Assembly (NCBI RefSeq): GCF_054482525.1
Contig: NZ_CM137006.1
DNA: 64,000 nt
Strand: one strand, 5' to 3'
Positions 12,423-33,003 of this stretch are shown piece after piece. The position numbers and the translations under genes were made by a program. The notes beneath the pieces were generated by a model that was given only the letters and a program-made list of their open reading frames with translations, searched no databases and was not told the DNA's origin. How positions within the stretch are numbered: the stretch's first letter is position 1; each line of letters begins with the position of its first letter.

Positions 12423-13409
12423 ATGAACGCAATAATATCGCCCGATTATTACTATGTTCTTACCGTTGCTGGTCAGTCTAATGCCATGGCGTATGGCGAA
12501 GGACTGCCATTACCGGACAGGGAAGATGCGCCTCATCCCAGAATTAAACAATTAGCGAGATTTGCGCATACGCATCCCGGAGGCCCGTCATGTCACTTTA
12601 ACGACATTATTCCACTGACTCACTGCCCACACGATGTTCAGGATATGCAGGGTTATCACCATCCTCTGGCAACGAATCATCAAACACAGTACGGCACCGT
12701 TGGCCAGGCACTGCATATTGCACGGAAATTACTGCCCTTCATTCCTGATAATGCAGGGATTCTCATCGTTCCGTGTTGCCGTGGCGGATCGGCTTTTACC
12801 GCAGGCAGCGAAGGGACATATTCAGAACGGCACGGAGCCAGCCATGATGCTTGTCGTTGGGGAACGGATACTCCGCTATACCAGGATTTAGTCAGCAGAA
12901 CGCGAGCCGCACTGGCAAAAAATCCGCAGAACAAATTCCTCGGCGTATGCTGGATGCAAGGCGAATTTGACTTAATGACCAGTGACTACGCGTCACACCC
13001 TCAACACTTTAATCATATGGTTGAAGCCTTTCGTAGGGATCTAAAACAATACCATTCTCAGCTTAATAAAATTACTGACGCACCGTGGTTTTGCGGCGAT
13101 ACCACCTGGTACTGGAAAGAAAATTTCCCTCATGCGTATGAAGCTATTTATGGCAATTATCAAAATAATGTTTTAGCCAATATTATTTTCGTCGACTTCC
13201 AGCAACAAGGTGCAAGAGGACTGACGAACGCGCCTGATGAAGATCCGGACGATTTAAGCACGGGATATTACGGTTCAGTGTACCGGTCACCGGAGAACTG
13301 GACGACGGCACTGCGAAGCAGTCATTTCAGCGCGGCAGCCCGTCGGGGGATTATTTCTGACAGGTTTGTAGAAGCAATTTTGCGTTTGTCACATTTTCAC
13401 AAAGAATAG
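12423..13409 (+). CDS. nanS: 9-O-acetyl-N-acetylneuraminate esterase NanS (YjhS)
   Basis: MNAIISPDYYYVLTVAGQSNAMAYGEG (SGNH-type GQSN motif); 328 aa from this start; synteny. Confidence 0.9.
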   Translation: MNAIISPDYYYVLTVAGQSNAMAYGEGLPLPDREDAPHPRIKQLARFAHTHPGGPSCHFNDIIPLTHCPHDVQDMQGYHHPLATNHQTQYGTVGQALHIARKLLPFIPDNAGILIVPCCRGGSAFTAGSEGTYSERHGASHDACRWGTDTPLYQDLVSRTRAALAKNPQNKFLGVCWMQGEFDLMTSDYASHPQHFNHMVEAFRRDLKQYHSQLNKITDAPWFCGDTTWYWKENFPHAYEAIYGNYQNNVLANIIFVDFQQQGARGLTNAPDEDPDDLSTGYYGSVYRSPENWTTALRSSHFSAAARRGIISDRFVEAILRLSHFHKE

Positions 13410-14208
13410 TACACGCTATTCCTTGTGCAATCAGGCCAGCTCGCAATAAAGGCAGCAACTATGCTTGAAGCCCCTTTCACCGCCGGATAAATAATATCCT
13501 TACGGCAATTGGTAACCGTATAAAATGCTTGATGTTTTGAACTGCCGTTGACGAAGATGAAGTAATCTGCTTTTTTGGCAGCATCCAATAACGCATCAAT
13601 GGCAACGCGATCATTGTTGAGCTCAATTCATAGCGCCGGATACAATTTCAATAAGGCGTCTTTACCACGTTGCGTGGCATTTTTGTAATACTGTAAAACA
13701 CCCGCTTTTTCCCGCGGAGATTCCGATACAACGGAGACGTTACGCTTGCTGGTATGGTTTCTGTCGGGAGGGTACTACCGATATCCTTACAAACGTAGAG
13801 CTGTTCCATCATGCGTGCCAACAACAGCATACGGATATCCAACCGTTCCCAGCGACGTAGGAACATCTCGCGAATGTTAATCCAGTACTGTAGTCGGCGA
13901 TCGCTATCACCAGATTCACAATCATAAAGAACCTCTGCAATATCAAGAGTATACTTGAGAATTTATGTCGATTCATTTTTCGTGCACAACATTTCGATAG
14001 CTTCGAGGGCATCATGGTATTCTTTGTGACTGAAGGTCCATGAAAGTAACGTATCCAGAATAATCCCTGTAGTTGCCAAAATGAGTTGATCACTACACAA
14101 TGATTTGTTTGTACAGAAGGAACGATTATTATATGTTCTTGTAGGGCAGAGCACGTTGCTACGGTAACAGCGTTGAAGATAATTTGGTCGAGACTGTAGT
14201 GGCCCAGT
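13397..14208 (-). pseudogene. 5'-truncated, frameshifted remnant of an unidentified gene at the island edge
   Basis: Four short minus-strand ORFs in at least three different frames can be chained into one reading. No convincing start. The 3' end overlaps the nanS stop by 13 nt. Confidence 0.45.
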
Positions 14209-14271
14209 TTAAAAGGTAGCAGAATTTTAAAAGTGTCAGGTGCATAGAATTAAAAAAATGGAACTATAAAA

Positions 14272-16005
14272 ATGGAAATCATGTTACCAAAAAACACCTT
14301 ATATGACAGAGAGCAAAATGTCTTTTTTGAAAAGGTTACGGCCTTAATTGGCGAAAATGGTGCTGGTAAGTCCTCGATTTTACAATCCGTATTTATTAAC
14401 TGTTTAACAAAAAAATATCTACCAGAAACAAAGGTTGTTTGTTTTTCTTCTGGACAAAATGAGAAATACTCAACGTACTTCTCTGATTATCTTTCTCATG
14501 AAAGGCAAGCAAATAGAGGTCTTAACTTAGATTGTTGTTATTACGATAAATCATGGTCAAAGTTACTAATATTCATATCCACAATTTGTAAATCAAATGG
14601 TCTTGTTAGAAATTTTTTATGTGAGAAAGGCTATATTGATGTATCAGATGATAAAAATGATGATATATCAAGCAAGCTTACATTGACGGTCCGAGTAAAT
14701 TCGGCTTACGTTAATCGAGTAAAAATGGCATTAGCACAAGAAGAACAAGGTATTGAAAATACTTTAAGGTATTCAGCTTATCATAGGACTTTAGAAAGTT
14801 TCATTAATAATATTGTTAATGCTGATTATGATTTCGAGTCTCCACTTGAAGCTCAAGAGATCTTGCTAACTCATTCAAATTTTTTCAATCCATCATTTGA
14901 GGAAGCAGAAGATTCCTTTTTTGATCCTATCATAACATTTTTCACTCAAGCAGCAGATAATGATTACTTTATAATAAAACCATCATTACAGCTAGAGTTT
15001 AAAAATAATATCGAACTGAATGATATTAGTGATGGGGAATATCAAGTACTCTTTTTATACTCTCTGCTTGATATTTTTGATAGTCCTAATACTTTATTCT
15101 TATTAGATGAGATAGATTCCCATTTACATTACAAGAATATTGAGCTCTTATGGCATCGACTACATAGTATTAATGGTTATGCGATAACAACCACCCATCT
15201 ATTAGACTCAATTACAGCTACTGATAATGATTTTAAAAACTTAAAGATTGTTGATAAAGGAAAAATAAAAGAAGATGATAAAATAAAAACTATAATAGAA
15301 CGTTTATCTGTCTTGACAAGAATATCAGACGTACAGTTCGAAGTGTGTCGTAAACTAGAAAACATAGTATTGATGGATGATTATAATGATTGGACTATTT
15401 TTTATGCCTTAGCAAAGAAAAAAGGACTTGATGTATCAAAGTTAGATGGCCTCCATGCAATAAAACAGTCCTCTGGTTACGATAATTTAAATCAAGAGTT
15501 CGCAAAACCAAAAATAGAGTGGATTAATTCGCTTTCAAATGTAAATACTGATAAGAAAGTCAAAAAAATATTCATGATCTGCGACAAAGATGAGGCTCCA
15601 ATTACCTATCAGAAAGATGGAGTTCAAGTCAATGGAAGTGAATATTCAAAACATATAGCGAAGTTAGAAAATAAAAACAAAAATAAAATATATCTCCTTG
15701 CTTGGAAAAGAAGAGAAATAAAAAACTACTTATTATCTTATACGGCATTGTCTCATCATGGATTTATCGGGCAAATAAACAATGGTGATCTGCCGGCTAA
15801 CAGTTATTTAAAAGAAAACAATCCTGGAGATAATTCAGCAATTAGCCGGCTTAATGTAAAACATTGCATCACAAAAATAATTGATTCTGATGGTATAGGA
15901 TTAGATATCTCAAAACTTTACTCATATATAGAACTTATACCACCTGCTGAGATCAGTGAAGATATAGTGAACATGTACAATTTTTTGGTGGAGAAATTAA
16001 AATGA
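14272..16005 (+). CDS. ABC-type ATPase fused to a C-terminal DUF4435/Toprim-like domain (OLD / PARIS AriA-AriB-like architecture)
   Basis: Walker A GENGAGKSS; signature-like SDGEYQ; Walker B LFLLDEIDSHLH; H-loop TTTH. C-terminal IVLMDDYNDW..FY, MICDKDE and KRREIKNYLL resemble DUF4435. Very AT-rich. Confidence 0.75.
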   Translation: MEIMLPKNTLYDREQNVFFEKVTALIGENGAGKSSILQSVFINCLTKKYLPETKVVCFSSGQNEKYSTYFSDYLSHERQANRGLNLDCCYYDKSWSKLLIFISTICKSNGLVRNFLCEKGYIDVSDDKNDDISSKLTLTVRVNSAYVNRVKMALAQEEQGIENTLRYSAYHRTLESFINNIVNADYDFESPLEAQEILLTHSNFFNPSFEEAEDSFFDPIITFFTQAADNDYFIIKPSLQLEFKNNIELNDISDGEYQVLFLYSLLDIFDSPNTLFLLDEIDSHLHYKNIELLWHRLHSINGYAITTTHLLDSITATDNDFKNLKIVDKGKIKEDDKIKTIIERLSVLTRISDVQFEVCRKLENIVLMDDYNDWTIFYALAKKKGLDVSKLDGLHAIKQSSGYDNLNQEFAKPKIEWINSLSNVNTDKKVKKIFMICDKDEAPITYQKDGVQVNGSEYSKHIAKLENKNKNKIYLLAWKRREIKNYLLSYTALSHHGFIGQINNGDLPANSYLKENNPGDNSAISRLNVKHCITKIIDSDGIGLDISKLYSYIELIPPAEISEDIVNMYNFLVEKLK

Positions 16006-17909
16006 ACACCTCTTTATTTGAAGATCTACTTACACTAATCAAGAAAAAGAGTTCGATAAGAAATACAGAGCAAGCAGTAGAGTTAATTTCATTATTTATT
16101 TTTTTACATTATATAAAATTATATCTTTATGAAAATGATAAAAGATTTTCAGATATAAAAAACATATCAAGCAACAACATTAATGAAATTAAATATTATT
16201 ACCAGCAACTATATGAAAGTTTTATTTTCTCGATAGATATAAAAAATATAAACCACGACATGCTTGAAAACCTCAGGAGTAAGATAGGTTTTTTAATTAA
16301 TAACATCAATGACCATGAAATAATTAAATATATAGATTATTCTATTTCGCAGATACATTCACTTACAGAATTCCATCAATATGCAAATTCTTATCAATCT
16401 TTAATTCTTAGGATGGTTAATGAATCGGGTCGTTCAGGTGAATATGTTACTCCATCTGCTTTAGTTCAGCTCATGGTTGAAATGTTATCACCTACAGATG
16501 GCACATCAATCTACGACCCAGCATGTGGAACTGGGGGTTTATTAATAGAGTCAGCACGATATATTAAAGGCAACAGTTTAAACAAAAACTTAAATTTAAA
16601 TTATTCCCTTATTGGTAATGACACATCATCATTTGCCTGTCTAATCTCAATTGTTAACCTTTTAATCAATAAAGAATTTAATTTTGAAATAATACTAAAA
16701 GATAGCTTAGATATAAATTATAAGAATAAAAAATATGACTTTGTTTTAACTAACCCACCATTTGGGAAAAAGAGCTGTTGGGATAATATTCATATTGACA
16801 CACATTATAAAGGACCTAATCTAGACTATTACTTCCTGGAGCATGTTATTGACTCTCTCGCTGTTAATGGCAAAGCAGCCATGATATTACCAGAGCGTTT
16901 TTTATATGATGTGAGTGAAGAGTGCATCACTCTTAAAGATAAGATCTTCCAAAATTATAATTTAGATTGTATTTTATCTATACCGTCAGGTGCATTGCTT
17001 CCTTACACTGCAGTAAAATTATGTATTCTTTTTATAAGTAATTCTGGCCCAACAGATAGAATATTTTTCTACAATTTAAATAATGGTGAAAAATACTCAC
17101 GTACAAATATTATAAAATTCGATGATTTTATAGATTTTTTAGAGTCAGCAAAAAATAGAACAATAACTGAACACTCCTGGATTATCAATATTAGTGATAC
17201 ACCTTCATCTTATAACTTACTCTTAAAAGATAAAGAGCGAAACTCATATGAGTTTCTTAGTGATTCTATAGTTAACATTGAACAGACAATACGTAATAAT
17301 GAATTATTACTAACAGAGTTGTCTTTATTAAGAGAAAAAATAGCAATCTTAGAGTCAACAATAAAAAATCATTCGCATGAATATGAATTTGAGAGACTTA
17401 AAGTTGGAAATATTGCAATAGTAAAATCCGGAAATTTATTACAAAAAAACAGGCTGTTACCCACTGGACCAATTCCTGTATACGGTGGAAATGGAGTTAT
17501 TGGATATAATAATGAAGCAATGGAAAATGGTGAAAATATTATTATTGGTAAGGTCGGAGCTCTTTGCGGAAACGTTCGGTATGTTCAAGGTGATATTTGG
17601 GTGACAAATAACTCATTAATTATTAAGAATTATTCACCAAATAAAGTTTTAACACCCTACCTTGCAAAATTATTATCTACTTTAAACTTAAGAAGGCTCG
17701 CCGTTGGTACCGCTCAGCAATATTTAACCACGACACAAATAAAAAATGTAGAAGTTAGTATTCCACCTTTAACGACCCAGTATAAATTAAATATTTGGCT
17801 TGATGAGTTAGATAATACGCTTGAACAATATAATAATCTCATTGAAAAAATAATGAATGATAAGCGAGAACTTAAAGAGAATTTGTATAAAGGTCTTTTA
17901 ATAGAATAG
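16002..17909 (+). CDS. N6-adenine DNA methyltransferase (HsdM-like) fused to a single HsdS-type target recognition domain
   Basis: Motif I DPACGTGGLLIE and motif IV TNPPFGKK. C-terminal ~200 aa resembles one HsdS TRD plus a conserved helix (GKVGALCGNV, WVTNNSLII, SIPPLTTQ). ATGA start/stop overlap with the upstream gene. Confidence 0.8.
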   Translation: MNTSLFEDLLTLIKKKSSIRNTEQAVELISLFIFLHYIKLYLYENDKRFSDIKNISSNNINEIKYYYQQLYESFIFSIDIKNINHDMLENLRSKIGFLINNINDHEIIKYIDYSISQIHSLTEFHQYANSYQSLILRMVNESGRSGEYVTPSALVQLMVEMLSPTDGTSIYDPACGTGGLLIESARYIKGNSLNKNLNLNYSLIGNDTSSFACLISIVNLLINKEFNFEIILKDSLDINYKNKKYDFVLTNPPFGKKSCWDNIHIDTHYKGPNLDYYFLEHVIDSLAVNGKAAMILPERFLYDVSEECITLKDKIFQNYNLDCILSIPSGALLPYTAVKLCILFISNSGPTDRIFFYNLNNGEKYSRTNIIKFDDFIDFLESAKNRTITEHSWIINISDTPSSYNLLLKDKERNSYEFLSDSIVNIEQTIRNNELLLTELSLLREKIAILESTIKNHSHEYEFERLKVGNIAIVKSGNLLQKNRLLPTGPIPVYGGNGVIGYNNEAMENGENIIIGKVGALCGNVRYVQGDIWVTNNSLIIKNYSPNKVLTPYLAKLLSTLNLRRLAVGTAQQYLTTTQIKNVEVSIPPLTTQYKLNIWLDELDNTLEQYNNLIEKIMNDKRELKENLYKGLLIE

Positions 17910-17915
17910 ATCACA

Positions 17916-17989: not shown

Positions 17990-20900
17990 TTAATAATGCT
18001 CCTCAATATACCCATACGCCTTCTGGAACAACTCTTTATCTTTCCCTAGTCCAAACTGGGCCAAGGTCAGCAAAAGCGCCTTTTGGATTTCGCGCGGGCC
18101 ACTGTTAGAATTTTGCCAGCCATCAAAGCGGGTAGCTTTCACAATTTTATCAATTTGCTCTACAACATCACCGATTAACTTAGGGGTAGTTTCCGGACGT
18201 GTTTCGAGGAAAAGCTTAGTCAACGCCTGTTTATTATCAGCTTCAGTTACTGGACGCTCGCCCGTTTCGCGCTCGGCTTGAACGGTATCTTTCGCTGCAT
18301 CCAACAGGCCTTTCAACCAGTCAATGGCCTTGATAACACCAGCTTCATAGTCCTGACGCAGTTTTTCAAGGCGCTCGCCCAATGCCACAAATTTAGGATC
18401 ATGACTGCCGCGCAAACGTCCCATAAGATCAATCTCCAGGCGTTTAGCACGTTGTTCCTGCTCTTTAGCGGTCAGGGTAAAAATAGCGTGCTCGTCCATG
18501 ACCAACTCGTCAATATCATCGCGAATACGATTGATATCAGTATGCTCATGGATCATCTTGATTGTTTCGGGGCCAAGGGCAGCCCAAACAAGCGCACCTG
18601 TCTGCCCTACCGGACGCACCGATTCATAAATTTGCGCCAGCCATTTATAGTCCTGACGATAAGGGGTCAAAAAAGGGTCTGGGTTGATAGCTGACCATAA
18701 CTTGGATAACACACCAAAGCTGGCAGCGAATTCATCGCGCTTCTCGTTGGTCGGCAGGCATTCCTGCGCGGCCATAATACCTTCAAAACCAGCTATGGAC
18801 CGATCCACACCAGGGAAGAAGGACAAACATTTATTCAGTTGTAACGGCAATAGCTCTTTAAATGCCTCAATTCCCTCTACAACTCCTTCAATTTCTTCAG
18901 GGTTATAGGCCAGAGCGGTACGCAGATTTTCGAAAACGCCGAGGTAGTCGATAATTAATCCCATGTCCTTGCGTACAGTATCGGTTTCGTACAGCCGGTT
19001 AGTTCGGCACATGGCCTGCAGAAGGGTATGATCGCGTAGAGGCTTATCGAGGTACATGCAGTAGCAAATCGGGGCATCAAAGCCCGTAAGCAGCTTGGCG
19101 GTTACGATAATAAGCTGTAATGGATATTCAGGATCTTTAAAGCACTCAATTAGATCCTTTTGCACCTGCTCTTCGGCATCGATGTGCTGCCAGCGTTCAA
19201 AATCGACTTGTTTGACAGGCAGCTCCAACTCATCATGCCATTTAAGCCAATCCTTGTTGAGCTTGTCTTTTTTGCCACCCTCTTCAACTTTAATCGGAGC
19301 CTGGTCAACGTTCATAACCACTTCAACTGCATCAAAACCAAGCTTTTCACCGAGCAAATAATACATCTGCACACAGGCTTCGCGATCGTATACCACAACC
19401 ATGCCTTTCATCTTTTTCGGCATAACATGGTTGGTAAAATGCTCAGCAATATCATTACTCACCGCAGCCATACGTCTGGGAGATTTCAGCATAATAGCCA
19501 GCTTGCCGGCACGTCTGGACAATGCTGCTTTTTCTTCTTCATCCAGGTTGTTTTCGGTAGCCAGTTGCTCGAACTCTTCATTGATGGCATCACGATCCAC
19601 TCGGAGTTCAGCCAGCCGAGGTTCGAACTTCACCGGGTTAGTTGCGCCATCCCGGATCGACTGCTTATAGCTATAGCGGCTCATATAGCGACCTGGATCT
19701 TCTTCGGCACCGAACAATTTGAACGTATTACGATCAATGCCAGAAATCGGAGTACCAGTCAGGCCATAGAAGTGGGCATTGGGCAACGCCCAGCGCATTT
19801 TCTCGCCTAATCCCCCTTCCTGTGTACGGTGAGCTTCGTCAACCAACACAATGATATTGTCCCGGTTGTTCAGGCCATTAGGGTTGCTATCGTCAATTTC
19901 GATATCTTTAAATTTAAAGATGGTGGTGATTAAAATGCCACGGCTGTCTTGTTCAATGTATTCACCCAACTTTTTGCAGCTTTGCACTTTAATCAGATTC
20001 TTAACGTCGGCTCCACCAAAGGTCTCGTTAATTTGGCTGTCCAGATCTCGCCGGTCCACAACGATAAGTACCGTCGGGTTTTTTAACGCATTATCGGCAC
20101 GTAGCATTTTGGCGGCGTAAAGCATCAACAAGGATTTACCCGATCCCTGGAAATGCCAAATAAGACCTTTTTTTGGATAGCCTCTGCGAACACGCTCAAC
20201 AATTTGTTTTGCAGCTTCAAATTGCGGATAACGCGGCAAGATTTTAACGCGTTTAGGTGGAGTATTTTTGCCCGTTTTGACGGTTGAAAATAATGCAAAA
20301 GATTCCAGTAACTGCAATAAGGTTTGCGGATTTAACAAACTCTCACAGCTATTGAGTACCGATGCCAGACCCGGCAAAATTTCATCACGAAGCTCAGTAT
20401 TATGCCAGGGTCCCCAGTCTTTAACTCGGGCATTAATGGCTCCATAGGCAAAGGTTTTACCTTCGCTGGCAAAGCACAGCAAGTTAGGTACAAAGAAAGA
20501 TTCAACATTTTTCCAGTAGTACTTTTTGCCACCCATGAAATCGGCAGCACCGTCTTGCCAGGTCACGCTGGGGCGTGTTGCGGTTTTAACTTCGCCTACT
20601 ACCAGTGGCATGCCGTTCACATAAAGAACAATATCAAAATAGACTTCAGTGGCCGCGATATAGTGAACCTGCTGCGCCACTACAAAGTGGTTGTTCTCTA
20701 TATTGTCAAAATCAATCAGATTGATGGTGATATGGTCGCCATTCTTACCAAAAGGCAAGGTTTTGTCGGCCATCAACCATTCCTGGAAGTTTTCATTGGC
20801 CTTTACCAAGCCGGTATGGCGGGCTTCTAAAACCACTCCTCGCAGTTTGTAAATGACCTCATCGGCATAGTCAGGCTGTCTGCCGATATCAGGGTTTAAC

Positions 20901-21052
20901 GAACAAAGCGCGTCTTTTAGCCACTCATCAACGAATATATCCTGCGCTTGTTTAGGCAGGTTTTCACCGTGGCAGTAAGTCCACTTGACTCCGCTTAAAC
21001 CTTTTAAACGGTCGATAATTCCATTTTCTGTGACGGTTTGTTCGTTAAACAT
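17990..21052 (-). CDS. hsdR: Type I restriction enzyme R subunit HsdR
   Basis: 1020 aa from MFNEQTV. PD-(D/E)xK-like DIVLYVNGMPLVVGEVK; helicase motifs QGSGKS and VDEAHRTQ. The start lies 1 nt after the hsdS stop. Confidence 0.93.
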   Translation of the reverse strand: MFNEQTVTENGIIDRLKGLSGVKWTYCHGENLPKQAQDIFVDEWLKDALCSLNPDIGRQPDYADEVIYKLRGVVLEARHTGLVKANENFQEWLMADKTLPFGKNGDHITINLIDFDNIENNHFVVAQQVHYIAATEVYFDIVLYVNGMPLVVGEVKTATRPSVTWQDGAADFMGGKKYYWKNVESFFVPNLLCFASEGKTFAYGAINARVKDWGPWHNTELRDEILPGLASVLNSCESLLNPQTLLQLLESFALFSTVKTGKNTPPKRVKILPRYPQFEAAKQIVERVRRGYPKKGLIWHFQGSGKSLLMLYAAKMLRADNALKNPTVLIVVDRRDLDSQINETFGGADVKNLIKVQSCKKLGEYIEQDSRGILITTIFKFKDIEIDDSNPNGLNNRDNIIVLVDEAHRTQEGGLGEKMRWALPNAHFYGLTGTPISGIDRNTFKLFGAEEDPGRYMSRYSYKQSIRDGATNPVKFEPRLAELRVDRDAINEEFEQLATENNLDEEEKAALSRRAGKLAIMLKSPRRMAAVSNDIAEHFTNHVMPKKMKGMVVVYDREACVQMYYLLGEKLGFDAVEVVMNVDQAPIKVEEGGKKDKLNKDWLKWHDELELPVKQVDFERWQHIDAEEQVQKDLIECFKDPEYPLQLIIVTAKLLTGFDAPICYCMYLDKPLRDHTLLQAMCRTNRLYETDTVRKDMGLIIDYLGVFENLRTALAYNPEEIEGVVEGIEAFKELLPLQLNKCLSFFPGVDRSIAGFEGIMAAQECLPTNEKRDEFAASFGVLSKLWSAINPDPFLTPYRQDYKWLAQIYESVRPVGQTGALVWAALGPETIKMIHEHTDINRIRDDIDELVMDEHAIFTLTAKEQEQRAKRLEIDLMGRLRGSHDPKFVALGERLEKLRQDYEAGVIKAIDWLKGLLDAAKDTVQAERETGERPVTEADNKQALTKLFLETRPETTPKLIGDVVEQIDKIVKATRFDGWQNSNSGPREIQKALLLTLAQFGLGKDKELFQKAYGYIEEHY

Positions 21053-21053
21053 T

Positions 21054-22241
21054 TTATATTTCCTTATCAATCATAGCTTGGCGCAGTTGAATAATTTTCC
21101 CCAAGGATTCATTGTGCCTATAAATATTCTCATACGAACACTTAAACGTATTAATGATTGATGCTTGAATATCGAAGGGAGGAATAGGAATTTGAATTTT
21201 TAAAAAGTTATCTTTATTTATTTTCTTCATACTTCCGCTAGTTCCAGCAGCAATACCTTGAATAGCTCGACGGCCATATGGAGACATCAGATAGTACATT
21301 AAAAACTCTTTTTTAATAAATTTTTCGTCAACAGCCAATCTCCACATCGTGTCTGGGAAAATCGTATTCCCATTGCCAGTCGATCCTTTATATTTTCCAA
21401 CTAAACCAACCAACTCCGCTGTATTAGAACGAGAGATTAACAAATCACCATCATTGCATGTTTTTCCTTTTAAAAAATGATCTTCTGTAATATTTTTTAA
21501 AGTAGTTTCTCTGAATCCTGATTTCGACAAACTATTTAGGTTCAGGACATAGTACCCAGTCCCGACTGCGGTTTCAACAGGAGAATATCCCCCTTCTGGA
21601 GAATCAATTAAAACATCTTTAATAGAACCAAAAGTCCATCCAACCGGAAGAGGAACACATTTATTCTCCCTCGAATCAAAGTAGTTATCAAAAGTCCGTA
21701 GACCAATAGCATATAATAATCTTTTAGCTGCTTTGAGAGCACTTAAATATAGAAGTTCTTTCTTTGCTAACGAATCAAAGATTATTAATGACGAGTATTG
21801 CTGTTCAATGCTCGGTATATTAACTTCTAGTTTATTTAAATCACTCCATTTTATTCGCGATGATAGCGAGCCGGCGGAATTTGCAATCACCTTTTCCATA
21901 AAAGAGGTTGATTGCATCAAGTGGGGTAAGTACCCATCCAATAAGTAGTTGTTTTTCCTTGGTTTAATTACCATTGCATCAGCAGAGCAAATACCATTAA
22001 TAGGGCTCACCGACACCCTTTTTAAATATGTATTTCGTCTACTAAAAATTATTTCGCCACACTTTACCTTAAAGGCTTGTGTTTTCAATTCAACGTCAGC
22101 CCCCCAATCATGAACATAAAAATAACCAGATTTCAAATGTTCCAACCCAATAAAATGCTTAGCATCGTCGCTTGTTGGGGAGATTCTAACCATAACCTGT
22201 TCAGCAAGATCACCAAATGTAACATTTCTTTTATTATTCAT
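21054..22241 (-). CDS. hsdS: Type I R-M specificity subunit HsdS (two TRDs)
   Basis: 395 aa from MNNKRNVTFGDL. Two TRD-like halves separated by a helical spacer. AT-rich. Overlaps the hsdM stop. Confidence 0.88.
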   Translation of the reverse strand: MNNKRNVTFGDLAEQVMVRISPTSDDAKHFIGLEHLKSGYFYVHDWGADVELKTQAFKVKCGEIIFSRRNTYLKRVSVSPINGICSADAMVIKPRKNNYLLDGYLPHLMQSTSFMEKVIANSAGSLSSRIKWSDLNKLEVNIPSIEQQYSSLIIFDSLAKKELLYLSALKAAKRLLYAIGLRTFDNYFDSRENKCVPLPVGWTFGSIKDVLIDSPEGGYSPVETAVGTGYYVLNLNSLSKSGFRETTLKNITEDHFLKGKTCNDGDLLISRSNTAELVGLVGKYKGSTGNGNTIFPDTMWRLAVDEKFIKKEFLMYYLMSPYGRRAIQGIAAGTSGSMKKINKDNFLKIQIPIPPFDIQASIINTFKCSYENIYRHNESLGKIIQLRQAMIDKEI

Positions 22242-23739: not shown

Positions 23740-25235
23740 ACCTCGAACCCTTCTTTGATAAGCAGGGCCTCCAGCTCCTCTTCTGCTTTTTCCAGCTCAG
23801 CCAGCTTCCGTTGAAAATCTTTGAGCGCCTCTTCCACAGTGATGGTTTCTTCTTCGAGTGGCTTTTGCACATAACGAGCAATATTTAGATTGAAGTCATT
23901 TTCTTCAATCTCCTTCAGAGGAACCCAGCGTGCAACGCCTTCGATTTCTTTTGCATCTGGCCCTTGTTGCGCCTGGTCATGATAGATTTGGTATATTTCA
24001 TCGGCCTGCTTGTTGGACAGCGTATTCTGCGCACGTCCCTTGGTATAGATTTCTTCAGCATTGATGATCAATACATGATCTTTATGCGCGGCCGGACGTG
24101 ATTTACGCAGCACCAAAATACACGCAGGAATCCCAGTTCCATAGAACAGGTTGGAAGCAACACCAATAATCGCCACAATGCGATTCTCTTGCAGTAATTT
24201 GGTTCGAATTGCCCCCTCTGCGCCGCCACGAAACAGCACACCATGAGGTAATACGACTGCCATACGTCCATTGTCGTTAAGTGAAGCAAACATATGCTGC
24301 ACCCAGGCAAAATCACCATTTGTTTTAGGCGCCAGGCCATATTGCTTACGGCCATAGGGATCGTTCGACCACAGATCGTATCCCCATTCTTTTAAGCTAA
24401 ACGGTGGGTTGGCAACAACGCAGTCAAAGGTTTCTAAACGATCGCTTTTTAAAAATTTAGGTTCGCGTAAAGTATCCCCTCGGACAATATCGAAATCTTC
24501 CTGTCCATGCAGGAACAGATTCATACGCGCAATAGCTTCCGTCGTTAAGTTCTTTTCCTGACCCTTGATTTTTAGTAAACGCGGATCACCACCATTTTCT
24601 TTTACATGGTGGATGGTCTCAAGCAGCATACCACCGGTACCACAGGCGGGATCGTAGACACTCTCACCGGCTTTTGGATCAAGAATGTTAACCATCAAAC
24701 GAACGATAGTTCGTGGGGTATAGAACTCACCTGCTTTCTTATTGGCTTTGTCTGCAAAGCGTTTGATCAGATACTCGTATGCGCGCCCCATATCATCGTC
24801 ACGGACACTAGAAACGCCAAGGTTCACCTTATTGAAGTGATTGAGTAACGTAGCCAGTAACTCATCAGAAAGGCGTTCTTTATTGGTCCAGCTGGCATCG
24901 CCAAAAATGCCATGCAGTTTAGGGTTTGCCAGTTCTATACCACGGAAGGACTCTTTTAAAGCCTGACCGATGTCCTTGGTCTCAGCGAAAACATCGCGCC
25001 AGTGGCAATTTTCAGGTATCTGAATACGGTGAAACATCTTGCCCTTGGCAAGCTCTGCATCCCCAACGCTCTCCATCGCATCAGCAAATTCTTCGTCATA
25101 CACGTCACAAATGCGCTTGAAGAACAAGATGGGGAAAATGTACGTTTTGTAATCTGACGCATCAATGGGCCCTGTAATAATATGGGCTGCATGCCATAGA
25201 TGGGCCTCGAGATCTTTTAGGTTAATCAGTGTCAT
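23736..25235 (-). CDS. hsdM: Type I R-M methyltransferase subunit, proximal paralog (HsdM-1)
   Basis: 499 aa from MTLINLKDLEAHLWHAA; EFYTPRTIV; DPACGTGGML; ANPPFSLKEW; C-terminal coiled coil. The ORF-track extension was trimmed. Confidence 0.9.
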   Translation of the reverse strand: MTLINLKDLEAHLWHAAHIITGPIDASDYKTYIFPILFFKRICDVYDEEFADAMESVGDAELAKGKMFHRIQIPENCHWRDVFAETKDIGQALKESFRGIELANPKLHGIFGDASWTNKERLSDELLATLLNHFNKVNLGVSSVRDDDMGRAYEYLIKRFADKANKKAGEFYTPRTIVRLMVNILDPKAGESVYDPACGTGGMLLETIHHVKENGGDPRLLKIKGQEKNLTTEAIARMNLFLHGQEDFDIVRGDTLREPKFLKSDRLETFDCVVANPPFSLKEWGYDLWSNDPYGRKQYGLAPKTNGDFAWVQHMFASLNDNGRMAVVLPHGVLFRGGAEGAIRTKLLQENRIVAIIGVASNLFYGTGIPACILVLRKSRPAAHKDHVLIINAEEIYTKGRAQNTLSNKQADEIYQIYHDQAQQGPDAKEIEGVARWVPLKEIEENDFNLNIARYVQKPLEEETITVEEALKDFQRKLAELEKAEEELEALLIKEGFEV

Positions 25236-25478: not shown

Positions 25479-26296
25479 TTGGCGCAAAATGGCGGCATTT
25501 ACTCATTTCTCCATCGGAGCATCTTACGCGCTATAACCACTCTCGTTTTTTCCTATTCCCATGCAGATGAAGCACTACGCAATGAACTTGAGAAGCATCT
25601 CTCCCCGCTGAAGCGAACCGGGAAGATCACAACATGGCACGATCGCCGCATCGTTCCTGGTCAGGAGTTCGAACGTCAGATCGACCACTATTTTTCGCAA
25701 GCAGATATCATCCTGATCCTGATCCTGATCCTGATCAGCAGTGACTTTATTGCTTCTGATTACTGCTATCAGGTAGAGATGAAAAACGCACTGGAACGGC
25801 ATGACCGGGGCGAGGCGGTGGTCATTCCGGTAATTTTAAGAAACTGTGCATGGCATCAGTTATAATTCGGCAGCATTATGGCGGCGACTATCGACGGTAA
25901 ACCCATCACTAAGTTTGCCACCCACGATGAAGGCTACGTTCAGGTCGTCGAGGCCGTCTCGCGTGCCATTGCCCGGATGGAAGCCAAAAAACTACAGCAA
26001 ACCATACATATCCCTTCACCGGCTCCGGCGAATCCGATCTTTTAGGGAGTAGATTCCGTTTTTACACCGCGTTCAAGCAACCTTACTCTATCTGTTATAG
26101 CCAGGATAATGTTGTTCGAAACAGTATTAACGAAATTGTAAGCCTTGCTGATAACGGCCAGACTCTTGGTTTTCGTGCTCTGATGGGAGGCTTCAGTCGT
26201 GGAACTTCACGAGACGAACTATTGACCAATGAAGGTATGTCGGAACATCTCTGGGAAATGTTCTTCGGGCTAATCAAGCAAAGAATGTCCCGATAA
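25479..26296 (+). pseudogene. Disrupted TIR-domain protein gene
   Basis: TIR signature VFSYSHADEALRNELEKHL...SSDFIASDYC...VIPVILRNCAW. In-frame TAA at 25863 and TAG at 26043. The likely ATG at 25489 is out of frame. The C-terminal part (..ADNGQTLGFRALMGG..KQRMSR*) is readable only in frame +2. Confidence 0.8.
25710..25736 (+). repeat. Hexanucleotide tandem repeat (atcctg x4.5) inside the TIR gene
   Basis: atcctgatcctgatcctgatcctgatc, translated ILILILILI within a conserved TIR strand. Confidence 0.95.
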
Positions 26297-26480: not shown

Positions 26481-27476
26481 TCATGCAGGCAAATACGTTT
26501 TCTTAAGCGGCACCAACAGCTTAGTTTCAATATCCACCTGCTCATAGTTTTCCACTAACGCGCGTACCAAATCGTCCAGCGTCCATAGCGTCAACGGGAT
26601 TGTAGAACGATCGGCCTCATAACGCGCATCCTTGCTGAATCCGCCGGTACTAACATACAGCCCGCGATCGTCTTTATGACGGCCACCGATAAAGCTACGG
26701 ATTTGCTGGCTGCTCATCTGTTCCCGCCGGTGCTTCACCTCAACAATAATGCGCGGATTTTCAAACCCAAATCCGTCAGGCGAAGCAATGATGTCTTTCC
26801 CACGGTCAGCACCCGCAGGCGATACCTGAGTTTTATATCCCATGCTGCGTAACACGCCAGCGACCAGATTCTGCATCTCATCCCAGTCGAGACGGTTGAT
26901 ACGATCCTTGATGCCTTCAAAAGCGATCATTTCCATGTCGCGCAGAGGATTAGAAACGACCTCATCCTCTTCACCTGAAACAGGTACTTCCGGCACGATA
27001 TCTGAGACAGGCTTATTGCCCTGCACTAATTCATTCACAGCAAAATCAGGCACCTGAAAAACTGTCAGCGTTGAACCAAGGGTGTTTCTGGTTGCATCAC
27101 TCAGACTATCGCGCTTAATCTCTTCCGCATTCCACTTCACTTTACGGGCGATGCCCATGCCATCTTCAAGCCACTCGGCATGAAACTCAAAATCTGACGC
27201 TATTTTCCCTATTAAATAGGTCCGATTAGAAGGTGAATAAGTGATAGCCCAGTCGCCTTTCTGCATTTCATTCACAAAGCGCCAGACCTGAGAAGCTCCA
27301 GAACGAACTGTGCCTGGCTTAGTCTGTGGCTCAAGCTCCTGATACCGGGTAAACAACTGCTCTCTTGAGCATCCAGGTTTCACATAGGGAGCGAGCTGCG
27401 ACCAACCAATTGCAACAACCTGTTTGTCTCTGAAGTCGTCGTACAATTTTCCGCCATCACCGCGGATCATCCACAT
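26481..27476 (-). CDS. Mrr-like (type IV) restriction endonuclease with N-terminal uncharacterised domain
   Basis: C-terminal Mrr_cat-like block (RGKDIIAS...IIVEVKHRRE..STGGFSKDA). Start chosen at MWMIRGDGGKLY; the ORF-track extension overlaps the upstream gene. Confidence 0.8.
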   Translation of the reverse strand: MWMIRGDGGKLYDDFRDKQVVAIGWSQLAPYVKPGCSREQLFTRYQELEPQTKPGTVRSGASQVWRFVNEMQKGDWAITYSPSNRTYLIGKIASDFEFHAEWLEDGMGIARKVKWNAEEIKRDSLSDATRNTLGSTLTVFQVPDFAVNELVQGNKPVSDIVPEVPVSGEEDEVVSNPLRDMEMIAFEGIKDRINRLDWDEMQNLVAGVLRSMGYKTQVSPAGADRGKDIIASPDGFGFENPRIIVEVKHRREQMSSQQIRSFIGGRHKDDRGLYVSTGGFSKDARYEADRSTIPLTLWTLDDLVRALVENYEQVDIETKLLVPLKKTYLPA

Positions 27477-27597: not shown

Positions 27598-30500
27598 CTA
27601 AACCTGACGCCTCTCAAGACTATTATAAATAGCCTCAATTTCACCTTTCAGGTTATCACCAGAGTAAACCATCGATGTATCGTATCGTTCATATCGCGCT
27701 TCCCGTGTCGCACTAAACCAGTTGAACGATCCCACGCATAGCAAACCATCATCACCAATAACAATTTTGCTATGAACACGGTTTACCAGCTTTGTAGCAA
27801 TACCCAGCGCATTCAGTTTCTCCAGCGCCGCTTTAAGGTTCTGCTGCTTCTCTTTTCGCTTCTCAAAATCTTTATGTTCAGTGTTGTAGCTTCTGTCAGT
27901 GACTATCGTGACGTTAATACCACGTGAACACGCCGCAATCATGGAATCAAGAAAACCCGTTTGCTCCAGCTTTTGCCAGGTCAGCCATGGAGAAACTATC
28001 GTGATGTGTTTATCGGTATTTTCAAACGTCTGATTCAGGAAATTATCATGCTGCTCCACACCATGGAGTGTGTAGATTTTGGTCTCGGAAGTTTTTAAAT
28101 CCTTACGCTCTTTATAATCAAAAGAGAGCGCATTCTTCTCGGACTCAAAGAGATATTTTGCCAGTAATCCCCGCGGAGATGAGGGAGGCTGGATCTCAAA
28201 CAGATCCATATCGCCGAAGACCAGGAAGCTATCCTTCGCACGGGAGACTGCAACATTCAGCATGCTGTTATCGCTATCAATAAACCCGCCATCTTCATGT
28301 TTTGAATAGACTGGCGAGAATATAACAATCGCTCTTTCCGCTCCCTGAAGAGAGTGCACGGTGCCCACGGTGAGCGACTTTTCATTCGCGCCCGTACTGA
28401 TACCTTGTTTACCCAGCGCCTGTTTGATAGTGGATACCTGCGCGCTAAAAGGCGTCACGATACCGACAACTTCATGAAGCGATTTGCCGTAATGCGCTTC
28501 AATATTTTGCTGGTTCTCTGCCAACCAGGCCGCTATCGTTTCAGCCTCAAGCAAATTATATCTACTTCCACTACTTGCCAGCTCTCCTTTACCATCAATA
28601 TGGAGATAACCCATTGCGGGCATTAAATTGCTCTCTTCGCGCCCTCTTTTAGGCAACAACTTACCGTGATAGCAGAGCGTATTACAGTATCCAATAATAT
28701 TATCGAAGCACCGGCGGTGTTCATATAGGTACATACCACGAGCCAGTTCGGGATCATATTGATAGCGCGAAGCAAACTGCGCTATTTTCATAACGCTGCC
28801 AGATGCGGCACTTTTACCAAGGTCTGCGATTGCCGTATATTTCTCGGTAATCTCTTCTTGCGTACTGCCAGACAGAATTTTTTCCGCAAGCATGTTACCG
28901 ACATCAATCGCGGGAGCAATACTCCATATTGGCGGGATCTGCTCCGTATCGCCAATCACTAATGCCTTCTTAGCTAATGCAAACGAGGCAGCAGCCACTT
29001 CAGGAAGCACCTGCCCGGCTTCATCGACAATGAGTAAATCGGCAAAATCATACAAATAACTTTTCTCGAATTTACGTTGTCCTTTGTGCTCACTTATCTG
29101 CATATTGCCGGGCAGCATATAGCATGTCATCACCACACATGGAGTGAGTTTCATTCGACGTTGCCAACGGGCGGTTACCCCTTTAGCGCCTTTTTTCTTC
29201 TTCTCTTCCTGCAGATCATCAATTCTGGCCATATCCATCAGCCAACGACCTTCCCAGTAGTGAGTCGTCAGTAAAAATGCAGGGAAGCGAATCTGCGTAT
29301 CAGCCAGTTCATCGGCCTGTGAGAAGCTCAGTTCCTCGTCGCCCTCATACCCTAAATCAAATGCCAGCCTCTGCCACTCCTGAACCGCCTGCTGTTCTTT
29401 AAGAACGATTTCATGGGCGGAGTCAATCTGCTGCCGGTATGTTGTTTGCTCGCGCTCAGCGGAATTGAGCAGCCCATCAATATTACGTTCGATAGTTTCA
29501 GGATCAGACCACTGATTTCCTGCAATCAGCGCGCCTAATTTATCTTCGAGAAACAACTGTATTTGGTACTGTCGCTTACTACGAACCGCTGGGAGCCAGG
29601 AAAATAATGAATAGATCAGTGATTCACCGGCGCGATATTTTTTCCATTCCGTTTTAGCACTCTTCAGTAGAGTGACTTTTTGTTCTTGTCCGGAAAGTAA
29701 TTTATTTAAATTATCGAGATATTGCTCAATGTCGTTAGCAATAAGCTCACGCGCAGCCCGTACCTGGCTTAACGTTTGCCATGTTGCGTTCAGTCTTATC
29801 AGTTGCTCGGATTTTGCTGCCAACTGACCATGCAGGAGTTCAATGACCTTTTCAGGGGATGAACACTCTTTTTCAGGAAAAGCTGCCTTAGCTTTCTCGA
29901 GATAAAACAGCAGTGCATCCTCTACATACTCTTTTGACTCAACCTGGTTGAAGAAATCTTCAGTTTGATATTTTTTGGCTGCCTCAGCTTTACGAGTGCT
30001 TGAGGGAAAATAAGCGCCGAAGCTTTTCAGCTCTGGCAACCATCGTCCGGCCATCGCACCTGAACCTTGCGAAAAGTCTTTCCCGAATGCCTCAATAATG
30101 TTCGTTACAGCCTGGTTATTCGTTGAAGTCGCGATAATAACCGGAGGCTCAGATTTTTCGAGAGCTGCTCTGGCCCACTGCGTGGCGATGATAGAAAGCA
30201 CCAGCGTGGTTTTTCCGGTTCCCGGAGGTCCATTAACAGCAAGGATATCGCCATGTCTTGCATCCAGAAAATGGCTTAAGGCATCGCGCTGAGCCTTTGC
30301 CAGCGGAAACTTATCTCCGGAGTGTCCAAGCCTGTCGCTGAATTTTGCTCCTGGAGCCAGCAAAGACTCTGCAGCATGAACCTCTCGCGAGGCGAAGCGA
30401 TTGAAGAGCGGCACATCCTTCTTGCAAACAAGCAGGTGATCATAAAGAGAAAGGATATGGAAACTGGCACCGCCAGATTGCGCCGTTTTAACAATATAAC

Positions 30501-31113
30501 CGTGCTCAGCGAGTTCATATTGCTCAGGATTTTTAATCCAGTCGCCGGCAACGTTCTTCAGCAGCCTCTCTGAATCATCCAGATATTGATGCCACTCCTG
30601 CTGCAAGGCTGCATATCGTGCTTCCCGTTCTTCATCCGTTTCGGCAGTCTTATCAATGCTGTCATCAAAGTTGATAGAGAACGAGGTATGGATTGTCTTG
30701 TATTTGTCATACTGCCCAATCTCACCAATCGAAAATGCTCCTTTTGGCAAAGGTTCAAGCAGGTCTCTGGGAATGGAGGTCGCTGGCGTCGGATATAAAA
30801 AACCCTCACGGCTGAGCAAGGCTGGCGTCACTAGCGGGGTAACAATATCAGGTGCGCCTGCGGAACGGTCCTTACCATGCTGCAGTAACCGAAAATAAAC
30901 TTTTGGGCGCAAGACGACATCGACCGTTTCGACATCGTCTTTTTCTCCCTCAAAAAATTTACTGACAATCGCTTCGTCAAGACGTCCCGCCGCTATCCCA
31001 TGCCAGTGAGTGAAATTTTTGGCGTCTTTCCGTTCAAAACTGCCCTTTCCTGACTCAGCATCCGCAAGCGAGTTGCGCCAGTATGAGGCAAACCCTAAAG
31101 CATTTTCATCCAT
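27598..31113 (-). CDS. SF1 (DNA2/NAM7/COG1112-like) helicase with C-terminal PLD-family nuclease domain; type II Mokosh-like architecture
   Basis: Walker [10 protein letters not shown]; LIVDEAGQV; [17 protein letters not shown]-terminal single HKD motif HSKIVIGD plus GSFNW. 1171 aa. Confidence 0.85.
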
Positions 31114-31438: not shown

Positions 31439-31816
31439 CTATCGTTTTGTCCGATGCTTGCGAATAAAAGCATTCAAAATGTCGCCTTCACCATGCATGA
31501 CAGAAAAAGAATATTCACATTCTTTCTTTATCAAGATTCCACATAATTCCTTGTGCAAATCAACATTAACTCCCTTTCCTTTCTGCGCTTTCTTCACACC
31601 GAGCTCACATGAACTGATTAATTCAACGGTACAGGGTTTCTTCAGATAATTCACACCATCAATTAAGCCCTGGAGAATGCATCTATTTGCGGTCGTATCA
31701 CTGTAGGAGAAAGTCAGATATTTTATTTTTCCTTCGTATTCCAACACAACCTCCGCCGAACCTTCACGTGTTGCAGCATCACAACCTCCTGTTGAATATA
31801 TTTTTACCATCTTCAT
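31439..31816 (-). CDS. Small RNase H-fold protein with degenerate active site
   Basis: Aligns by eye to E. coli RNase HI: VKIYSTGGC / VEIFTDGSC, TTANRCIL / TTNNRMEL, CTVELISSC / CEVILSTDS, VNVDLHKEL / VNVDLWQRL. D10, E48 and D70 equivalents are T, I and S. Confidence 0.65.
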   Translation of the reverse strand: MKMVKIYSTGGCDAATREGSAEVVLEYEGKIKYLTFSYSDTTANRCILQGLIDGVNYLKKPCTVELISSCELGVKKAQKGKGVNVDLHKELCGILIKKECEYSFSVMHGEGDILNAFIRKHRTKR

Positions 31817-31884
31817 TTTGTAACTTTCCCCTTACCAAACGAATCGCGACATCCTATATCAAAGGCATTCTCGTCAAAACTTAA

Positions 31885-32664
31885 TTATCTCAGTAAATTC
31901 TTCCGATGCCACTCCAGATAACAATACGATTCAACAGAAAACGCCTTTATTTTCTCCGGCAACAAACATTGCTCTTTAACGCTAATATCCAGCGCCTTAC
32001 TAATTAATAAATGCCCATCGTTCTCAAACGAAATCCATCCCTGATCGAATAGAATATCAATATGCGCAGCCAATATAATTCCATTAAAAGGATCAAGCCG
32101 TTCATTCCCATTCTCGCAGGCAGCCCACGGCTTTATATGGCTGGTACGCAGTAAAGGTGCAAACGTCGTTCCCGTAACAGGACATGCCGGATACAACATA
32201 AGACAATTTTTCCGAAAGGTACCTTGCCCCAGCCGTGCCGCAATCAGCTGCTCGCGTACGGTATCTTCAATACTTTTATCCTGCTGAATAGCAAGACAGT
32301 CACGTTGTGCCTGTTCATCTCCAGCAGAAGATATTAACGAAAGAACGCGCTGCTCAATCGCACTGTCTGAAAGCACACTCATTCGCTGATACACACGCTG
32401 CGCTGAATGAGAAAGCGCAGCAGGAGCGCCCTGCTCGTCAAGCCAGCCGACACGCACATCACTAAGCCAGGAATCAAAACGGTCACGACTATTTTTCAGA
32501 CTATTGTGAAACTCGCTGGCAGTTTTGCCCGCTCCAAATCGAGGATAAAACAAGGCAAAAGCCTCTTTCCATTTCTGAACACCCAGTCCTGCGGGTGGTT
32601 GAGATTTTCCGTACTTCGACAAATACCACGCCACTTCAAGCAAATCGTCTTCAGAGCTATTCAA
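31885..32664 (-). CDS. HNH_2-family endonuclease with N-terminal uncharacterised domain
   Basis: CPVTG...SHIKPW...NGIILAAHIDILFDQGWISF is typical of the PF13391-type HNH. Apparent TTG start preceded by an AGGA Shine-Dalgarno. Confidence 0.75.
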   Translation of the reverse strand: MNSSEDDLLEVAWYLSKYGKSQPPAGLGVQKWKEAFALFYPRFGAGKTASEFHNSLKNSRDRFDSWLSDVRVGWLDEQGAPAALSHSAQRVYQRMSVLSDSAIEQRVLSLISSAGDEQAQRDCLAIQQDKSIEDTVREQLIAARLGQGTFRKNCLMLYPACPVTGTTFAPLLRTSHIKPWAACENGNERLDPFNGIILAAHIDILFDQGWISFENDGHLLISKALDISVKEQCLLPEKIKAFSVESYCYLEWHRKNLLR

Positions 32665-32965
32665 TATTACGTCCTGTTTTTGCAGAGTAAATTATCACCA
32701 GATTATATCTGAAAAGATCGTTTACTAAACTGATCTGCTTACCTGCAAAACGGTACTGCAAACGCTAATACTCAGAACCATTAAGAGGAACAAGCAGGTG
32801 CATTCCGCTGCCATCGGTCAGTTTGTATTGCTTATCCCCTGCCTCTAGGTACAAGCATTTTCGAAACGGAAATACCATTATCTGTTGGTAGATGTACGTT
32901 GAAGTTGGTTCACCTGGAGAGAGTTAATATAGCGGGAAAGGTAGGTAAATACTGGATTTCAGGTA

Positions 32966-32990
32966 TAAAAAAAGACCTCAGTTGAGGTCT
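32966..32990 (-). terminator. leuX rho-independent terminator
   Basis: agacctca-gt-tgaggtct stem followed, on the minus strand, by a T-run. Confidence 0.8.
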
Positions 32991-33003
32991 ATTTACATAC
33001 TTT

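Follow-up and report, generated by a model that had tools for sequence, protein, structure and literature searches.

A leuX-anchored defence island of Escherichia coli with an integrase remnant, in the known hotspot #37

How does an island of defence genes come to occupy a transfer RNA (tRNA) attachment site without a working integrase, and in how many steps was it put together? The question is raised by a 64,000-nucleotide stretch of an Escherichia coli chromosome (NCBI RefSeq assembly GCF_054482525.1, contig NZ_CM137006.1; the whole stretch is called the window below), in which the 19.6 kb between nanS and the tRNA gene leuX (positions 13397-33003) are taken up by restriction, methylation and other putative defence genes. 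No other locus of E. coli is used as heavily for defence as the leuX-nanS interval, and the movement of its contents is an acknowledged open point (PMC10121019). As hotspot #37, defined by nanS...yjgB (ahr) and tRNA-Leu-CAA, it was found occupied in 462 of 475 genomes, with 31 types of defence system, no detectable mobile element in 68% of cases and an unclear mode of mobilization (Hochhauser et al., 2023; PMC10121019), and a review of restriction-modification treats the same leuX-anchored island as 'HS37' (EcoSal Plus, 2025; PMC12707154).

An earlier note on this DNA had described the leuX-nanS interval as a defence island that lacks an integrase, and had read the patchy base composition of its six or seven modules as the trace of serial acquisition. 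The observation is largely right, and the parts do differ in their distribution among 5,426 complete E. coli genomes; half of the interpretation holds, and the phenomenon has already been described, since with 68% of the published fillings free of any detectable mobile element an integrase-less island is the norm at this site. We consider it highly probable that the interval is a filling of hotspot #37 that began as an old island integrated at leuX, lost its site-specific mobility, now consists of three blocks, and has been remodelled by tandem insertion and by recombination. The useful additions include corrections concerning base composition and the methylases.

The integrase remnant and the three blocks

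The argument starts at the tRNA side, where the features are as follows.

31439..31816, minus strand: short RNase H-like protein of 125 aa (NCBIfam RNase HI at 3e-11, profile positions 2-70 only; PHROG RNase H)
31885..32664, minus strand: HNH endonuclease (Pfam HNH_2 at the C-terminus, N-terminal part without an assignment; PADLOC HNH, 69 bits)
32734..32837, minus strand: 104-bp 5' remnant of an intB/P4-type integrase, arm-binding DUF4102 region (alignment to K-12 intB; tblastn)
32838..33003, minus strand: conserved sequence downstream of leuX with the tRNA terminator hairpin, common to K-12 by alignment (terminator-like site 32990-32973)
33004..33088, minus strand: leuX, tRNA-Leu (CAA), right anchor and attachment site (ARAGORN, Rfam)

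In K-12 the same interval holds intB and the KpLE2 element, as the earlier note had stated, and in the alignment K-12 homology runs 268 bp beyond leuX, reaching the start of intB. What lies there in the window encodes approximately residues 16-48 of the leuX tyrosine integrase; the start codon has been lost by a 48-bp deletion, and an in-frame TAG stands where K-12 reads TGG. Searches by tblastn with four leuX integrases matched this remnant with E values from 3e-12 to 5e-5, and no other place in the island gave an integrase match below E 0.1. The same spot is annotated in RefSeq as an incomplete 'DUF4102 domain-containing protein' or a pseudogene in strains 13KWH46, STEC1590 and WP2-W18-CRE-03. 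The statement that the interval contains no integrase, transposase or phage gene therefore stands for transposases and phage structural genes, none of which appear in the RefSeq annotation of the identical sequence or among PHROG matches, and fails for the integrase, of which a dead piece is present. The site was thus not natively integrase-less, which argues against the serial assembly of independent modules at such a site.

Intact integrases occupy this position in other strains (UTI89, A33, SCU-102). In UTI89 the order is leuX, intact integrase, mkoC, and its alignment to the window is interrupted between 31267 and 32736, so that about 1.47 kb with the RNase H-like and HNH genes occupies the position of the integrase body. 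The RNase H-like gene is always paired with the HNH gene, in 161 genomes. From these alignments it appears that this 1.5-kb cassette replaced the integrase gene except for about 104 bp; an island integrated at leuX would in this way have lost its integrase, and mkoC, which adjoins the intact integrase directly in UTI89, would be a long-standing resident.

An integrative element is recognized by a tyrosine integrase gene beside the tRNA gene and by a direct repeat of the tRNA 3' end at its far boundary, and of these the island has the 104-bp dead remnant and no repeat. A second copy of the leuX 3' end, for which the earlier reader had also looked in vain, was not found with up to three mismatches in 23 nt, two in 14 nt or five errors in 24 nt, and searches for flanking direct or inverted repeats returned matches at chance level only. 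The earlier note had named a degenerate integrase or a direct repeat as evidence that would speak against its view; the former has turned up and the latter has not. The island shares its attachment site and integrase family with KpLE2 of K-12 and with the leuX pathogenicity islands (PAI II of UTI89 or 536); unlike these it carries no working integrase, no insertion sequence (IS) elements and no fec, sgc or pap cargo, and with 19.6 kb it is smaller than KpLE2 (about 40 kb). The leuX pathogenicity islands exceed 100 kb.

Towards nanS, the interval contains these further features.

13388..14271, no strand assigned: left junction spacer, co-occurring only with the ATPase/methylase module
14272..16005, plus strand: OLD-family-like protein with an N-terminal ABC ATPase (AAA_21) and a probable Toprim fold at the C-terminus; guanine-plus-cytosine (GC) fraction 0.31
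16002..17909, plus strand: methylase-specificity (M.S) fusion, a type I-like methylase with a single target-recognition domain (Pfam N6_Mtase and Methylase_S; PADLOC MTase_I and Specificity_I)
17990..21052, minus strand: hsdR, restriction subunit (TIGR00348, 475 bits; Pfam HSDR_N, SWI2_SNF2, T1R_D3-like; RefSeq)
21054..22241, minus strand: hsdS, specificity subunit, AT-rich (Pfam Methylase_S)
22234..23730, minus strand: hsdM2, NPPY-class, adjoining hsdS (FANPPYS motif; match to PacII M2)
23736..25235, minus strand: hsdM1, NPPF-class, head of the operon (VANPPFS motif; match to PacII M1)
25479..26296, plus strand: TIR-domain gene, ThsB-like, a pseudogene (first open reading frame with Pfam TIR_2 and PADLOC ThsB, 202 bits)
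26481..27470, minus strand: Mrr-type restriction endonuclease with an N-terminal DUF8426 (Pfam Mrr_cat; PADLOC candidate PDC-S02, 275 bits)
27598..31113, minus strand: mkoC, single-gene Mokosh type II, 1,171 aa (PADLOC MkoC, 1692 bits, positions 1-1135 of 1136)

Profile searches and the RefSeq annotation of the identical sequence agree on this gene set (ATPase, N6_Mtase fusion, hsdR, hsdS, two hsdM, TIR, Mrr, helicase-PLD and HNH genes), and a PADLOC run on the island returned MkoC, PDC-S02, MTase_I/Specificity_I, ThsB and HNH. With nanS, leuX and ahr in their expected positions, and with a complete type I system, MkoC and the candidate PDC-S02 inside, the window has what characterizes hotspot #37. 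It resembles the published cases in its identical flanking genes and tRNA anchor, its dense defence genes and contents that are swapped between strains, and it does not differ from them in kind. The window brings no new kind of system; what is added is the detail of the integrase remnant and its replacement, the three blocks, and near-isogenic strains showing two routes of change.

The module-by-module search of the 5,426 genomes gave the following matches.

ATPase and methylase module: 102 genomes
type I system: 109 genomes
TIR and Mrr genes: 148 genomes, with most of the module in 99
mkoC (helicase-PLD): 888 genomes
RNase H-like and HNH genes: 161 genomes
whole island: 100 genomes, about 2% of the total

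Together with strain comparisons, these figures divide the island into three blocks. The first is a variable slot (13388-26437), filled here by a 13-kb restriction-modification cassette; the second comprises the Mrr-type nuclease and MkoC, the latter apparently an old resident of the site; and the third is the putative integrase-replacing RNase H-like and HNH cassette, followed by the integrase remnant. The segment 26438-33027 is common to 13KWH46, STEC1590 and WP2-W18-CRE-03 at about 97% identity, and in all three the slot between Mrr and nanS is occupied by a DUF499/DUF3780/DUF1156/PLD system. As a separate observation, strains with this alternative filling carry fosA7.5 (fosfomycin resistance) and an ISL3 transposase inside the hotspot (L006 1831-3990, L007 3109-5268).

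Could the block be nothing more than ancestral chromosome, passed down vertically within one E. coli lineage and without any notable horizontal history? The identities invite the thought: in the same strains the island is 98.8% and the flank 98.7% identical, and mkoC is 96-97% identical in strains as distant as UTI89 and O104:H4, about the same as the flanks. That island and flanks have diverged equally fits a long residence, with vertical or recombinational inheritance within the lineage, and to this extent the single, vertically inherited unit which the earlier note had set against its own view is partly borne out, in the 100 or so genomes with the whole island. Nevertheless, the whole block is restricted to about 2% of complete genomes, and strains that share the neighbouring block have a different system in the slot. 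With the cross-genus identities and the SCU-102 replacement described below, these points make a purely ancestral origin very improbable.

Two routes of change among near-isogenic strains

Four strains with near-identical flanks (that of the window, PCN033, 19KM1776 and SCU-102) provide a clean natural comparison of how the locus changes, their only differences being elements of 49-57 kb inserted at leuX or a replacement of 11.9 kb. PCN033, 19KM1776 and SCU-102 have the leuX flank (33004-45000) at 100% identity, and the island itself (13397-33003) is 100% identical in PCN033 and 19KM1776; none of the complete genomes has the fully identical island directly adjoining leuX. In these two strains about 49 kb and about 57 kb, respectively, of a CP4-like element lie between the island and leuX, and at the junction with the old block stands a leuX repeat (TTCGAGTCCGGCCTTC-GCACCA; 23 nt, one deletion), so that the 23-24 nt of the leuX 3' end are duplicated in the strains bearing the newer element. 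P4-like satellites are found at the same position in STEC1590 and WP2-W18-CRE-03. Judged from these junctions, tandem insertion at leuX appears to leave the old block in place, and this would be the first route of change, in which new integrase-bearing elements insert at leuX and the older block is left behind the attachment (att) repeat.

The integrase-bearing neighbours in PCN033, 19KM1776, STEC1590 and WP2-W18-CRE-03 also bear on another reading, in which the whole 19.6 kb is still a single mobile unit, moved in trans, in the manner of a satellite, by the integrases of neighbouring leuX elements or helper phages. Such mobilization has been raised as a possibility for islands of unclear mobility (Hochhauser et al.; PMC10121019), and the 92% identity to Tatumella described below requires horizontal transfer of at least the 13-kb cassette. 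The att repeat, however, lies between the newer element and the block, so that excision of the element would leave the block behind; the nanS end offers no attR-like repeat even with five errors allowed in 24 nt; and what Tatumella shares is the cassette from 14098 onward, in another arrangement, and not the whole island. We find transfer of the complete interval in trans barely credible.

The second route is illustrated by SCU-102, which differs from window positions 1-21054 by two mismatches, and in place of 21055-33003 (11.9 kb) carries an intact integrase, a helix-turn-helix (HTH) gene and a second set of type I genes, M1'-M2'-S'. The M1' and M2' genes are 90% identical to those of the window and S' is unrelated; the crossover falls at the hsdR/hsdS boundary. 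The same integrase-HTH-type I arrangement is present in strain A33. A replacement of this size between near-isogenic strains is a further argument against undisturbed vertical inheritance. The SCU-102 structure suggests that stretches may be exchanged by homologous recombination, with the flanks and shared cassette genes serving as arms; here a shared defence gene would have provided one of the two arms, the direction and path of the exchange being our inference. In the lineage of the window, the island would then be inherited either vertically or by homologous recombination. The comparison as a whole suggests that the integrase-less islands at this locus are decayed integrative islands, later remodelled by homologous recombination through the defence genes they share.

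The cassette across genera and its base composition

The base composition of the island is as patchy as the earlier note had stated: between 14.2 and 17.9 kb the GC fraction is 0.26-0.33, in hsdS it is 0.35, and the remainder of the island has 0.43-0.50. It does not follow that the modules arrived one by one, since the same cassette occurs elsewhere with the same contrast. In Salmonella enterica the ATPase, M.S fusion, hsdR, hsdS, M2, M1 and TIR genes are found in the same order at 87-92% nucleotide identity. In Tatumella terrea window positions 14098-23007 are matched at 92%, hsdS included, up to the end of the contig, which corresponds to 23007; an mkoC homologue of 67-73% identity lies there on the opposite side of the ATPase gene, so the arrangement differs. 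In Vibrio and other collinear loci the ATPase and fusion genes have GC fractions of 0.30-0.38 and the M1, M2 and R genes 0.44-0.46. Because the AT-rich pair and the mid-GC genes are linked or collinear across genera with the same contrast, this contrast belongs to the gene families, and it is older than the arrival of the cassette in E. coli. Genome-wide identity between the genera Escherichia, Salmonella and Tatumella is lower than 87-92%. Identities of this level in the cassette stand against an origin in the ancestral chromosome of one E. coli lineage; rather, the slot between Mrr and nanS would have taken up a 13-kb cassette, composed of a PacII-like type I system, an OLD-like ATPase with its M.S fusion and a decayed TIR gene, that travels between genera as a single piece.

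How much, then, is left of the serial assembly of six or seven modules from separate donors? Prevalence does differ between the parts, from 102 to 888 of the genomes searched, the GC fraction spreads from 0.29 to 0.50, and type I cassettes sit beside an intact integrase in A33 and SCU-102. A Salmonella variant (L019) has the type I system and the TIR gene without the ATPase/methylase pair, which shows the pair to be separable, yet does not make it an independent late addition here. Against this, E. coli, Salmonella, Tatumella, Vibrio and others all have the AT-rich pair linked to the mid-GC type I system. In about 50 of 55 loci of different species a methylase gene comes directly after the ATPase gene, and no more than three or four acquisitions or replacements have to be assumed for the three blocks. 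Serial assembly in its original form consequently appears improbable, and the locus carries the warning that compositional patchiness within a defence cassette is no proof of stepwise acquisition.

The Salmonella loci also contain a trace of the cassette's earlier surroundings. In L012 (9372-9459) a degenerate repeat of the leuX 3' end and the leuX terminator lie immediately beyond the ATPase end of the cassette; this looks like the signature of the far boundary of an integrated element, a boundary that the E. coli island appears to lack. The Salmonella homologue of Mrr was tried as a lead to the tRNA side of the cassette and was rejected, its context being unrelated and belonging to a conjugative element, and the Salmonella TIR homologues gave no tRNA-proximal side, as their contigs stop at the TIR gene or belong to a different type I island.

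Several points weigh against a decayed leuX island remodelled by insertion and recombination. The nanS end has neither an att repeat nor a scar that would account for the joining of the ancestral island to the 3' end of nanS. For SCU-102, an integration with a later deletion between two copies of hsdR would account for the structure equally well as direct allelic replacement, and strain comparisons of this kind would give no count of gains and losses and no direction for the change between SCU-102 and the window. The leuX repeat in Salmonella, finally, hints that the cassette may once have lain within a complete integrative element.

The individual systems

The type I system of the cassette has the properties of the PacII-like class, in which an NPPF subunit produces N6-methyladenine (m6A) and an NPPY subunit, which adjoins S, produces N4-methylcytosine (m4C) (Morgan et al., 2016), so that an enzyme of this class would mark the two strands of its bipartite site differently, one with m4C and the other with m6A. 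The PacII_M1M2S complex is available as PDB 7VRU, and each subunit here is orthologous to its PacII counterpart: M1 scores 984 bits against 7vru_A (PacII M1) and 475 against 7vru_B, M2 scores 983 bits against 7vru_B (PacII M2) and 451 against 7vru_A, and residues 23-196 of hsdS match residues 12-180 of 7vru_C (1.8e-27). The gene order M1(NPPF)-M2(NPPY)-S-R is the same in both, the two M subunits are paralogues (49% identical here, 45% in PacII), and in hsdS the first recognition domain is similar to the domain with which PacII S reads cytosine. The second is unlike that of PacII, so that the target sequence should differ, and the system here is in addition linked to the OLD-like ATPase and a second methylase-specificity fusion. 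By these similarities hsdM1 is a predicted N6-adenine methylase and hsdM2 a predicted N4-cytosine methylase, and the type I system is probably a non-canonical m6A/m4C enzyme in E. coli instead of one with two adenine methylases. Of the three N6-adenine methylases counted in the earlier note two are thus likely to be such enzymes, and the third, of the NPPY class and similar to PacII M2, probably modifies cytosine at N4. The hsdS gene is the most variable of the cassette: the 109 genomes matching the type I system fall into at least four coverage classes (100, 83, 82 and 77%), and it is hsdS that the incomplete matches leave uncovered, so the cassette, conserved in its other parts, seems to occur with several specificity alleles.

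The AT-rich pair beside it is the only part of the island with some chance of novelty. The ATPase protein has the N-terminal ABC ATPase with a Walker A motif that marks the OLD family; the other mark of that family, a C-terminal Toprim domain with an acidic residue behind strand 1 and a DxD motif behind strand 3, is a probable assignment here. No curated family reached its cut-off against it: the best scores were AriA with 53 bits, mad3 with 48 bits and TIGR04435 with 34 (cut-off 300). MADS was rejected, with MAD2 at 59 bits against a cut-off of 720, mad3 as just given and the other genes of the mad1-mad8 set absent; for the ATPase, scores far below family level and missing partner genes led to the rejection of PARIS, Gabija and Menshen. 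With its ABC ATPase head and a probably Toprim-like C-terminal domain with acidic motifs the protein resembles GajA, PARIS AriA/AriB, RloA/RloB and Mad3/Mad4, and it resembles the Rlo genes further in that its gene sits within type I restriction-modification loci; unlike the split ABC-ATPase/Toprim pairs, both domains are fused here in one protein. Class 4 of the OLD family is the split type, PARIS. In the OLD-family review, class 1 stands alone, class 2 goes with a UvrD-like helicase and class 3 is found in a retron; the ATPase gene of the window, followed by a methylase gene, departs from the described contexts of all four classes.

The M.S fusion gene starts within the end of the ATPase gene, carries the motifs DPACGTGG and TNPPFG (NPPF) in the alignment, by which it is a predicted m6A enzyme, and is 35% identical to its Acinetobacter counterpart, likewise beside an ATPase gene. 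A scan for the ATPase gene with one genome per species, comprising 55 loci from many gamma-proteobacteria, found the methylase gene directly after it as an M.S fusion in about 22 loci and as hsdM with hsdS in about 28, and hsdR usually lay directly upstream of it. Six loci (Vibrio, Aliiglaciecola, Thalassotalea and others) have the genes collinear and on one strand as M1-M2-S-R-ATPase-M.S. A single HsdR family as the partner of the pair was considered and rejected: the neighbouring HsdR in Acinetobacter is just 22% identical to that of the window, so the pair is not tied to one such family. We raise tentatively, as a possibility that we think rather doubtful, that the pair is an undescribed accessory of type I restriction-modification. 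The OLD-like nuclease may be a second restriction arm, directed or restrained by its own methylase and possibly sharing HsdR, or it may be a PARIS-like guard, triggered once the type I enzyme has been put out of action by Ocr or other anti-restriction proteins.

The TIR gene is a pseudogene: tblastn with the intact ESC818 allele reveals two in-frame stops and a 12-bp insertion, and RefSeq labels it 'frameshifted; internal stop'. Thoeris was rejected as its system, as the island has no ThsA and the TIR gene is dead. A TIR (or TIR/Y4lF) gene lies divergently beside the first hsdM in several different type I islands, in Salmonella as well as in E. coli (window 25479-26296, L012 21221-21734, L018 10001-10801, L019 10001-10446); it is intact with 327 aa in Salmonella and 216 aa in some E. 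coli, and dead in the window. The linkage of a lone TIR gene to type I systems is thus a repeated one.

The Mrr-type enzyme, whose homologues carry PF28530 and PF04471, is probably modification-dependent (type IV). DUF8426 also heads an McrB protein in Acinetobacter (L008 2140-4533), which suggests that this domain may be a reader of modified DNA. MkoC has the architecture of Mokosh type II, in which one gene encodes both an N-terminal Upf1-like superfamily 1 (SF1) helicase (COG1112) and a C-terminal PLD nuclease (Millman et al., 2022), with the Pfam domains AAA_11 and AAA_12 at residues 272-969 and PLDc_2 at 1028-1143; no difference from the type was detected in the window protein. [quoted passage not shown] The K-12 pseudogene yjhR, beside nanS, is about 70% identical at the nucleotide level to the 3' part of mkoC (window 27599-28819 versus L002 40812-42031) and has the look of a divergent Mokosh type II gene of which only a piece is left.

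The flanks and the junction with nanS complete the description.

12423..13409, plus strand: nanS (sialate O-acetylesterase), left flank (Pfam SASA; RefSeq annotation of the identical PCN033 sequence)
33242-34303, beyond leuX: ahr (yjgB)

Upstream of the island nanC-nanM-nanS end at 13409, and beyond leuX follow ahr, idnK and idnD. By blastn and by alignment to K-12 and STEC1590, K-12 homology stops at about 13385-13387, approximately 20 bp before the stop codon of K-12 nanS, so that the last eight or so nanS codons are supplied by island DNA; between K-12 and STEC1590 divergence begins right behind the nanS stop codon. The C-terminus of NanS (13384-13409) accordingly reads ...AILRLSHFHKE before the stop in the window, versus ...AILQFWRER in K-12. 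The junction spacer was covered completely in all 102 genomes that match 13410-17960; it contains no recognizable gene, its 94-aa open reading frame (13809-14093) having no Pfam, PADLOC or PHROG match, and repeat searches found no att-like repeat in it. Rfam gave no structured RNA within the island, and hence no retron and no group II intron. Outside it, Rfam matched Ysr276 at 44103-44297 (minus strand, 186 bits) and a magnesium riboswitch at 61896-62011 (minus strand, 126 bits). The idnK-idnDOTR cluster beside ahr (34307-39400) is present in the window, K-12 and UTI89 and absent from 13KWH46, WP2-W18-CRE-03, STEC1590 and A33; where it is absent, ahr is directly followed by yjgR, which constitutes a second presence/absence polymorphism beside the hotspot.

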